A stretch of 13,774 nucleotides of DNA from a virus (Duplodnaviria; Heunggongvirae; Uroviricota; Caudoviricetes): positions 1 through 13,774 of IMG/VR virus record IMGVR_UViG_2778261448_000011. One strand, given 5' to 3'. A program made the position numbers and the translations under genes. Shown here one piece after another: positions 3,743 through 4,519 of this stretch. Within the stretch, counting starts at the first letter, position 1, and the number at the start of each line of letters is the position of its first letter. Under the pieces are notes generated by a model. The model saw only the letters and a list, made by a program, of their open reading frames with translations. It was not told the origin of the DNA and searched no databases.

Positions 3743-3959
3743 TGTGATAGAGATCATTATTCAATTCGATTGAGAAAAATCATCATAAAGTTTATATCCA
3801 TTTATTAGATTTTATGTGTATAAATAGTTAAAAATGTACGATGTAGAGATATTTGTGCTTAACATCAATTAATCATTGCTAAATCGTGCTTATTGTTCAG
3901 AAATTGCCCAAATTATATTGAAAATCTGTTGGCGAACACCTATATAAGGAGTATAGTTA

Positions 3960-4322
3960 GTGACCCAAAACGTATTGCCAATCAACAAGAGCTTGCATGA
4001 CCGAGCTGTTGATGAATTTAATCGTCTGCATGGAACAATGATTGGCGAGATTAGCGCAATGCTGAAAACAGCTAAAGTAGCGCCACTGGTGGATCTCCGT
4101 AAGAAAGATCCTACCTTCTTGAACGTTGTCGCAGAATTACGGACATTCAGAGACGTATGTAATGCTCTGATCCCGCACTTTCTTGTAGATAAGACCAGCG
4201 AAATCGCTGTCATTGATAAGTTACTTATACTGGCTAATGACCTGGCTCAAGCCATCGATGCTGACGATCCTGACGCATTGTGCGCAGCAATAGCAGCCCT
4301 TGATGTTGAGCCTTACATTTAA
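3960..4322 (+). CDS. Hypothetical protein (120 aa), first gene of a cassette in the rexAB slot
   Basis: GTG start at 3960 with RBS aggag (3947-3951); predicted helical, acidic C-terminus; no resemblance to RexA or RexB that I can see; preceded by a 217-bp AT-rich non-coding stretch. Confidence 0.6.
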   Translation: MTQNVLPINKSLHDRAVDEFNRLHGTMIGEISAMLKTAKVAPLVDLRKKDPTFLNVVAELRTFRDVCNALIPHFLVDKTSEIAVIDKLLILANDLAQAIDADDPDALCAAIAALDVEPYI

Positions 4323-4337
4323 ACGAGGGGAAAAAAA

Positions 4338-4466
4338 ATGACTAAAGCGTTTGACTATACTGCCGTTAGTAAGCTTTTGGCTGAAATGCGCGGATGTGTA
4401 GAGCGCGTTCAAAATCTACGCCGCGACTTTGAAGCTCACATCAATCATTCACAAAAAGCGGCTTGA
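4338..4466 (+). CDS. Hypothetical small protein (42 aa), second gene of the cassette
   Basis: ATG 4338 with RBS gagggg 8 nt upstream; MTKAFDYTAVSKLLAEMRGCVERVQNLRRDFEAHINHSQKAA; not in the ORF track (below size cutoff); followed by an intrinsic terminator. Confidence 0.4.
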   Translation: MTKAFDYTAVSKLLAEMRGCVERVQNLRRDFEAHINHSQKAA

Positions 4467-4493
4467 TACTTAAGTTAGATAACAGAACCAGAA

Positions 4494-4519
4494 CCCGGCC
4501 TCAGCGCCGGGTTTTCTTT
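4494..4519 (+). terminator. Rho-independent terminator closing the cI-cassette transcript (t-imm analogue)
   Basis: Stem cccggc (4494-4499), loop ctcagc, stem gccggg (4506-4511), then ttttcttt. Confidence 0.7.

Follow-up and report, generated by a model that had tools for sequence, protein, structure and literature searches.

The window analysed here, the whole stretch of 13,774 nucleotides (nt) at positions 1 to 13,774 of the IMG/VR virus record IMGVR_UViG_2778261448_000011, is a lambdoid prophage whose orientation is opposite to the standard lambda map. Between its cI repressor gene and OL/pL it carries a cassette of two small open reading frames (ORFs), ORF120 and ORF42, named for the lengths of their products in amino acids (aa), with an AT-rich leader in front and an intrinsic terminator behind. 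The cassette exactly occupies the slot held in lambda by rexA-rexB, from the cI stop codon to tIMM, and is co-oriented with cI. With high confidence it is an autonomous accessory unit (a moron) placed for expression in lysogens, an expression that we infer. The function of the pair is a more tentative matter, and the reading favoured here, with a probability of roughly 0.4, is that it may form a toxin–antitoxin-like phage-exclusion module.

Replacement of rexA-rexB

Because the cassette spans the distance from the cI stop codon to the counterpart of lambda tIMM, it is an exact replacement of rexA-rexB. The repressor on its left shares 224 of 237 residues with what we take to be the lambda cI sequence; its homologues are named LexA family protein by the Prokaryotic Genome Annotation Pipeline (PGAP). 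On the right, window positions 4492-4560 are 93-95% identical to lambda 35760-35826, the tIMM region just 3' of rexB. The terminator consists of a GC-rich stem (4494-4499 paired with 4506-4511) plus TTTTCTTT and folds with -17.8 kcal/mol (z = -2.6), and the Hafnia, Pantoea and other loci likewise have a hairpin with a T-run behind the cassette. Further downstream a promoter scan places pL at 4708-4736 (TTGACA-17-GATAAT).

A preliminary description of this DNA had proposed a two-gene cassette in the rexAB slot between cI and OL/pL, and all of its elements were found. The 217-bp strongly AT-rich leader that it described (3743-3959) has a guanine-cytosine (GC) content of 26.7%. Its 120-aa helical protein with a GTG start and a strong ribosome-binding site is predicted by AlphaFold2 (AF2) to be all-helical and has AAGGAG 8 nt upstream, and its tightly spaced 42-aa ORF at 4338-4466, likewise said to have a strong ribosome-binding site, begins with an ATG after GAGGGG. 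For the intrinsic terminator at 4494-4519, the stem, the fold energy and the tIMM homology agree. The description had also held that neither protein resembles RexA, RexB or a recognised family, which is borne out by the family searches reported below.

The contents of the slot vary. In E. coli prophages with lambda immunity there are at least five alternative cargos in this position, and the cI and tIMM flanks enclose rexAB, this cassette or at least three others. Cargos seen in the slot include a ParA-family ATPase of 347 aa (locus L021, 1976-3019), an SDH/ClpP-like serine protease of 300 aa with a 56-aa ORF (L022, 1816-2889) and a pair of 145 and 123 aa, the second member of which has a weak XhlA match (L023, 1696-2491). 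Two E. coli prophage loci with the cassette, L002 and L003, have 28 nt left over from the 3' end of lambda cI (CCAGTGGCCTGAAGAGACGTTTGGGTGA; ~4977-5030) between the stop codon of an unrelated repressor and the leader of the cassette, a mark of transfer by recombination at this flank. The moron would have replaced rexA-rexB by recombination at two conserved flanks, the cI 3' end and tIMM.

The region between the repressor and N has been described as a mosaic hotspot for morons, with accessory loci that include RexAB and BstA (PMC8585504 and PMC7067206, where Degnan et al. 2007 is cited), and the slot as a variable defence locus that holds HigBAC in a lambdoid prophage (bioRxiv 10.1101/2024.02.24.581848). 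Swappable cargo in this cI–N variable locus is of a well-known kind, and an unknown cargo there is not surprising to a specialist. In the lambdoid prophage NC-SV the 3' end of cI is reported to encode a small RNA, svsR (PMC12803456). In the window the 3' end of cI is at ~3660-3742.

Gene reality, family searches and distribution

Comparison of the Escherichia, Hafnia and Pantoea copies gave proportions of synonymous differences (pS) of 0.55-0.80, which is near saturation, and of nonsynonymous differences (pN) of 0.09-0.19. The ratio of nonsynonymous to synonymous substitution rates (dN/dS) was 0.07-0.13 for both ORFs, with 0.07-0.11 for ORF42, and 0.2 in the closest pair. Gene length, order and termini are kept down to 25-45% protein identity. 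These values indicate that both ORFs are real genes under purifying selection. The idea that they are chance reading frames in a non-coding spacer could draw on the shortness of both, the GTG start of ORF120 and the lack of a family annotation, and it is refuted by the dN/dS values (0.07-0.2), by the conserved length, order and termini and by the matches to PHROGs given next, so that it has practically no chance of being right. An ORF on the minus strand (3890-4213, 107 aa) was rejected, as selection acts on the frames of the plus strand.

ORF120 matches PHROG 13858 (E = 6e-70) and ORF42 matches PHROG 12503 (E = 2e-26), both annotated as of unknown function. Neither protein has a family match in Pfam, NCBIfam, PADLOC or PDB; the defence-protein search used the PADLOC-DB v2.0.0 models. 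The exact ORF120 sequence is present on 43 Escherichia contigs, and those named members of its cluster that were read are all called hypothetical or uncharacterized. A profile search of 1.84 billion representatives returned 36 matches, almost all of them stand-alone proteins of ~105-150 aa, and therefore offered no informative domain fusion. A literature search by protein accession and PHROG number found nothing. The sequences are thus already in databases and PHROGs, always as unknown, and form a family without a characterized relative.

The family is rare. The cassette is carried by 89 of 5,426 complete E. coli genomes (~1.6%), at ~96% identity, and PGAP annotates it as two hypothetical proteins. 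O26, O103 and O111 strains of human and bovine origin are among these E. coli carriers. Further searches yielded 14 clusters from 5.8 billion proteins (word-indexed), five loci from 100,044 species with a single representative genome each, and 29 loci from IMG/VR. Among 50,697 records of sequenced phages a single one has it, Proteus phage vB_PvuS_Pm34, as gp26/gp27. Almost every named genome belongs to the Enterobacterales, and a few divergent family members come from other organisms or from unidentified ones.

The two proteins

ORF120 has an isoelectric point (pI) of 4.9, and the whole family is acidic (pI 4.3-5.9). Its AF2 model (predicted local distance difference test score, pLDDT, 82) has three long helices and a short C-terminal helix. 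The grand average of hydropathy (GRAVY) is 0.25 for ORF120 and -0.50 for ORF42, and both proteins are predicted to be soluble. In an alignment of 31 representatives, down to 24% identity, no invariant residues of a catalytic type were found in ORF120. The most conserved block of these representatives is the C-terminus, ...D.L.AAIAALDxKPYI, and 28 of the 31 proteins end exactly at P-[YF]-[IVLT]. Such a near-invariant free C-terminus suggests a terminal peptide with a role as a degron or in docking to a partner. The tail, L-D-x-x-P-Y-I, is loosely like LDIPAFL, which we take to be the C-terminal peptide of FtsZ; the likeness is imperfect, with the Pro shifted, and is a lead only.

Judged by its sequence, ORF42 may be a single amphipathic helix, and it has no hydrophobic segment. 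The family alignment has an invariant Cys, and the last residue is Ala in all copies; the C-terminus is usually Ala-Ala preceded by Lys or Gln. This Ala-Ala ending presumably resembles C-terminal recognition signals of ClpX, again as a lead only. Between the Shine-Dalgarno sequence and the ATG of ORF42, the window has a G-run and an A-run (GAGGGGAAAAAAA, 4325-4337). The G-run is G4 in the window and G3 in locus L001, being one base shorter in some copies, and this difference in length alters the spacing from the Shine-Dalgarno sequence to the start. The start of ORF42 is moved by 1 nt in loci L025 and L033.

Pairing and genomic context

Both genes were found together and in the same order in every locus examined (~45), drawn from E. 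coli, Enterobacter, Serratia, Citrobacter, Hafnia, Pantoea, Xenorhabdus, Proteus phage Pm34 and IMG/VR contigs. Each locus has a gene of ~120 aa, then after 13-40 nt a partner gene of 40-45 aa, with a hairpin terminator behind it. The majority of loci have a co-oriented gene of repressor size 200-440 nt upstream of the pair. When 26 of these upstream proteins were compared, 22 proved to be S24 repressors, and they are 13-81% identical to the window cI, a range that means that many immunity types are represented. The upstream gene of L014 encodes a RacR/PaaR2-like repressor that has only a helix-turn-helix (HTH), with YdaS/YdaT opposite, and that of L017 a protein weakly similar to Arc/Mnt, with a BRO-N antirepressor-like gene next to it. 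The two genes thus keep their pairing and their place behind a gene expressed in lysogens, and no link to a single repressor is conserved. That repressors of so many immunity types precede the cassette speaks for its expression in lysogens.

Copies are also found outside immunity regions. In L017 and L019 the pair is beside tail-fibre genes; in L019, from Xenorhabdus, the tail-fibre gene comes first and then the pair. At L011 (GCA_003987475.1) a chromosomal copy outside any prophage has an inositol phosphatase gene on one side and a PilZ gene on the other, and it is equipped with a TATAAT and a terminator of its own. The L011 cassette is flanked by tandem arrays of a 49-bp repeat unit (2509-3942 and 4568-4640), in which the palindrome CCTGTTGCnATAGCAACAGG is found. 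A hipBA-like pair lies 2 kb upstream, and the HipA-like kinase beside L011, with a weak match to the candidate model PDC-M03A, gave the sole PADLOC signal among the neighbours of the stand-alone copies and the alternative cargos of the slot.

Several loci have additional small genes near the cassette. A 51-aa strongly hydrophobic ORF, which may encode a membrane protein, is located between repressor and cassette in L014 (3555-3710) and L015 (2290-2445), and a 110-aa ORF without a domain is found at the same place in L005 (4400-4732), a contig with a Hafnia-type protein. Between the cassette terminator and N, a minus-strand gene of 63-69 aa is present in L006 and L007 (5561-5752), L008 (5563-5766) and L014 (4583-4792). 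This small gene, found in Hafnia, Pantoea and other relatives and absent from the window, is a DUF2767 gene in L008 and L014, and the Hafnia copy has no recorded Pfam match. One of the 26 upstream proteins matches DinI (E = 1.4e-14) and by its size is taken to be the 65-aa ORF of L053 (387-584).

Leader and upstream element

The leader is the lowest-GC stretch of 217 nt in the window, which has a mean of 45.3% (standard deviation 4.9%); ORF120, at 45.2%, and ORF42, at 45.0%, both equal that mean. No intrinsic terminator is predicted on the plus strand between cI and ORF120, and read-through from the repressor promoter is therefore plausible. The distal leader is not conserved, with ~50% identity between genera. 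The proximal 45 nt before the GTG are 63-82% identical to the window in loci where the nucleotides of the coding sequences are 56-61% and the proteins 41-47% identical. This element contains TTGAAA (3918-3923) and, after a 17-nt spacer, TATATA (3941-3946), and the promoter scan gave an overlapping TTGGCG-17-TATAGT at 3929-3957, which across loci takes the form TTGnnn-16/17-TATAGT. The hexamers and their spacing are conserved and the spacer sequences vary. The element looks like a promoter and may act as one. The Shine-Dalgarno sequence of ORF120, at 3947-3952, is very strong.

Other signals in this region were considered and rejected. The TTG repeats of the upstream element were inspected as a lambda CII-type site, and their spacing is 11-12 nt, where TTGC-N6-TTGC would have 10 nt. 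A conserved RNA structure around the start codon amounted to a weak 6-bp hairpin (-2.4 kcal/mol). The Rfam scan gave matches at chance level only; among them, isrF over window positions 4332-4517 (ORF42 and the terminator) scored 17 bits (gathering score 40; E = 0.35) and is taken as chance.

Features of the window

The features of the window are collected in Table 1. In addition, a 121-aa ORF with hydrophobic stretches lies 3' of the N-like gene (5485-5850). At the equivalent position of the Enterobacter locus L016 there is a 170-aa ORF (4433-4945), the C-terminal region of which closely resembles the 121-aa ORF of the window.

Table 1. Features of the prophage window and of the cassette in the slot between cI and OL
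Feature	Position	Strand	Remarks
Replicative helicase-like gene and O-like gene	1-2027	minus	
cII	2325-2621	minus	
cro	2728-2928	minus	
Lambda-type cI repressor gene	3029-3742	+	HTH_3 and Peptidase_S24 domains; cassette starts at its stop codon
AT-rich non-coding leader, 217 nt	3743-3959	+	26.7% GC
Conserved proximal cis element, 45 nt before GTG	3915-3959	+	63-82% identical to the window in other loci
ORF120, acidic, predicted all-helical 120-aa protein, GTG start	3960-4322	+	C-terminus ...LCAAIAALDVEPYI
Shine-Dalgarno sequence of ORF42, GAGGGG, then A-run	4325-4330	+	
ORF42, 42-aa partner, ATG start	4338-4466	+	Ends ...QKAA
Intrinsic terminator, lambda tIMM counterpart, right boundary of cassette	4490-4519	+	Fold and homology
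OL operators and pL, end of variable slot	~4660-4740	+	Lambda-like operator half-sites visible
N-like gene	between OL/pL and RecT		
RecT	7200-8111		
xis and int	12704-13774		

Comparison with known systems

The cassette shares with lambda RexAB the slot after the cI stop codon and before tIMM/OL, the orientation of cI, the number of genes and a homologous tIMM flank. It has no sequence relationship to RexAB, as there is no match to any Pfam family, those of RexA and RexB included, and none in NCBIfam or PADLOC. The cassette proteins, of 120 and 42 aa, are also much smaller, and RexB is reported to be a membrane ion channel (PMC8585504) whereas ORF42 is hydrophilic and both cassette proteins are predicted to be soluble. 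HigBAC (bioRxiv 10.1101/2024.02.24.581848) and paaA2-parE2, a toxin–antitoxin system behind the CI-like PaaR2 in CP-933P (PMC8630535), are small multi-gene modules that lie behind the lysogeny repressor and depend on it for transcription. PaaA2 is, like ORF42, small, and is an antitoxin without a DNA-binding domain (PMC8630535). However, these modules have recognizable toxins, HigB and ParE2, and ORF120 has neither a toxin fold nor a catalytic motif. With type II toxin–antitoxin systems in general the cassette has in common two small, adjacent, co-directional genes that always co-occur in the loci examined.

BstA of prophage BTP1 is likewise located downstream of the repressor, has its own Rho-independent terminator and is expressed in lysogens from the repressor promoter (PMC8585504); unlike the cassette it is a single gene, and no similarity was detectable in the family searches. 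Hex of phage 434 is a small protein encoded right after cI on the same transcript and is annotated as a "repressor protection protein" that protects the repressor from RecA. Hex overlaps the cI stop codon, whereas the cassette has a 217-nt leader and a pair of genes, and some of its copies are not next to an S24 repressor. Homology to Hex was rejected (hhalign probability 0.6%). True members of the family are gp26/gp27 of Proteus phage vB_PvuS_Pm34, which keep the gene order and the place after the repressor, with 52% identity to ORF120. All of these, PHROG 13858, PHROG 12503 and gp26/gp27, are labelled hypothetical or unknown, and hence membership is functionally uninformative. As in other prophage morons, the cassette sits between conserved phage flanks with presence/absence polymorphism and has its own terminator; in composition the leader is set apart by its 26.7% GC and both genes, at 45%, equal the window mean.

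Proposed function and alternatives

In the lysogen, the cassette would be transcribed by read-through from the repressor promoter, ending at tIMM, and probably also from a promoter of its own within the conserved 45 nt before the GTG. The products would be two small cytoplasmic proteins that act as a pair. Because it has no catalytic signature, ORF120 most likely acts by binding another protein, and AIAALDxKPYI-COOH would be the likely docking element. The helix of ORF42 may bind and control ORF120, and with an Ala-Ala end that resembles ClpX-type degrons it could be a short-lived antidote or sensor. ORF120 would then be the effector, set free or redirected once infection by a phage upsets the balance, to the benefit of the lysogen. 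Three things prompt the guess of a toxin–antitoxin-like exclusion module: the two genes always go together, their termini are conserved, and the slot has the record described above. A more specific version holds that this is a new, non-enzymatic two-protein exclusion or addiction system without a known relative, in which the C-terminal peptide of ORF120 inserts into a host or phage protein, possibly by mimicking a host docking peptide, and ORF42, an antidote with fast turnover, links the system to infection. This version is somewhat unlikely.

A number of observations weigh against an exclusion or toxin–antitoxin role. The functional reading of the preliminary description comes down to position, as the sequences themselves show no defence, abortive-infection or toxin–antitoxin activity. 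Neither sequence has a toxin fold, a membrane segment, a DNA-binding antitoxin or a PADLOC match. Unlike type II toxin–antitoxin systems, the pair has no recognized toxin fold or motif, ORF42 has no match to a DNA-binding domain, and the order, with the large gene first and the small partner second, is atypical. The family is present on one of 72,556 plasmids, a record of 2.1 kb, unlike most toxin–antitoxin families and many defence families. Among the neighbours of the stand-alone copies PADLOC found no characterized defence system. The alternative cargos of L021-L023 have no match in PADLOC v2 either, and the "defence" label of the slot therefore goes back to a handful of characterized cases. 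The preliminary description had also pointed to an AT-rich, foreign-looking composition, which holds for the leader and fails for both genes, whose GC content is that of the window. Finally, an independent promoter is doubtful because a transcript from either pair of hexamers would begin at the Shine-Dalgarno sequence or after it.

The lack of a defence signature would fit a lysogenic-conversion moron that alters host physiology, for example by titrating a protein of cell division, proteolysis or the stress response through the C-terminal peptide of ORF120. In its favour too, both proteins are soluble, small and non-enzymatic, a terminal peptide is conserved, and the slot has cargos other than defence genes, as a PagP-like gene is annotated beside the repressor in phage Huey. 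There is, however, no homology to a known host-modulating small protein, the likeness to the FtsZ motif is imperfect with its shifted Pro, and exclusion or toxin–antitoxin systems prevail among the characterized occupants of the slot (PMC8585504; bioRxiv 10.1101/2024.02.24.581848; PMC8630535). A role in host physiology is unlikely. The tight association with S24 repressors, which are RecA-cleavable, in 22 of 26 contexts raises instead the idea that the pair tunes the lysis-lysogeny switch or SOS induction, by shielding the repressor from RecA-stimulated cleavage or by biasing the switch. The precedents would be Hex, the repressor protection protein directly after 434 cI, and RexA, which is reported to bias the lambda switch (PMC11077077). 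An acidic helical ORF120 would act by protein binding here too. Small RecA regulators also act by binding another protein. Recombination at the conserved 3' end of cI, of which the 28-nt remnant in L002 and L003 is a trace, accounts for the same association equally well. The hhalign probability of 0.6% speaks against similarity to Hex, and the cassette is also found behind non-S24 repressors (the HTH-only protein of L014, the weak Arc/Mnt-like protein of L017) and outside prophage immunity regions (L011, L018-L020), which makes a role in the switch quite unlikely.

Small acidic helical phage proteins often inhibit host systems, and the pair, with ORF120 of that type and a conserved upstream element of its own, might instead work for the phage once it infects or is induced, with an early or counter-defence function and with expression from the establishment promoter or its own. 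Yet the cassette is co-oriented with the repressor and lies inside the repressor–tIMM unit, which is silent for the lytic promoters. The chromosomal copy L011 has no phage genes nearby, and the family occurs in 1 of 50,697 sequenced phage records versus prophages of 89 of 5,426 complete E. coli genomes. A lytic role is accordingly very unlikely, and the toxin–antitoxin-like exclusion module stays the preferred reading.

Implications for lambdoid prophages

The cI–N region is among the best-known prophage sites for genes that protect the host, and most of its cargos are uncharacterized. The cassette described here is a clean case of cassette exchange at fixed recombination flanks. It is compact, ~780 bp with its native leader and terminator, and the pair is conserved across Enterobacterales. 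It offers a small, well-delimited and easily testable candidate for a system that works by protein binding only. If the pair does exclude phages or act in addiction, it would represent a new mechanism purely by protein binding, as neither protein has a catalytic domain, and one that could be readily dissected through the two conserved C-termini. If the pair instead tunes induction, it would matter for the stability of lambdoid prophages in the strains that carry it.

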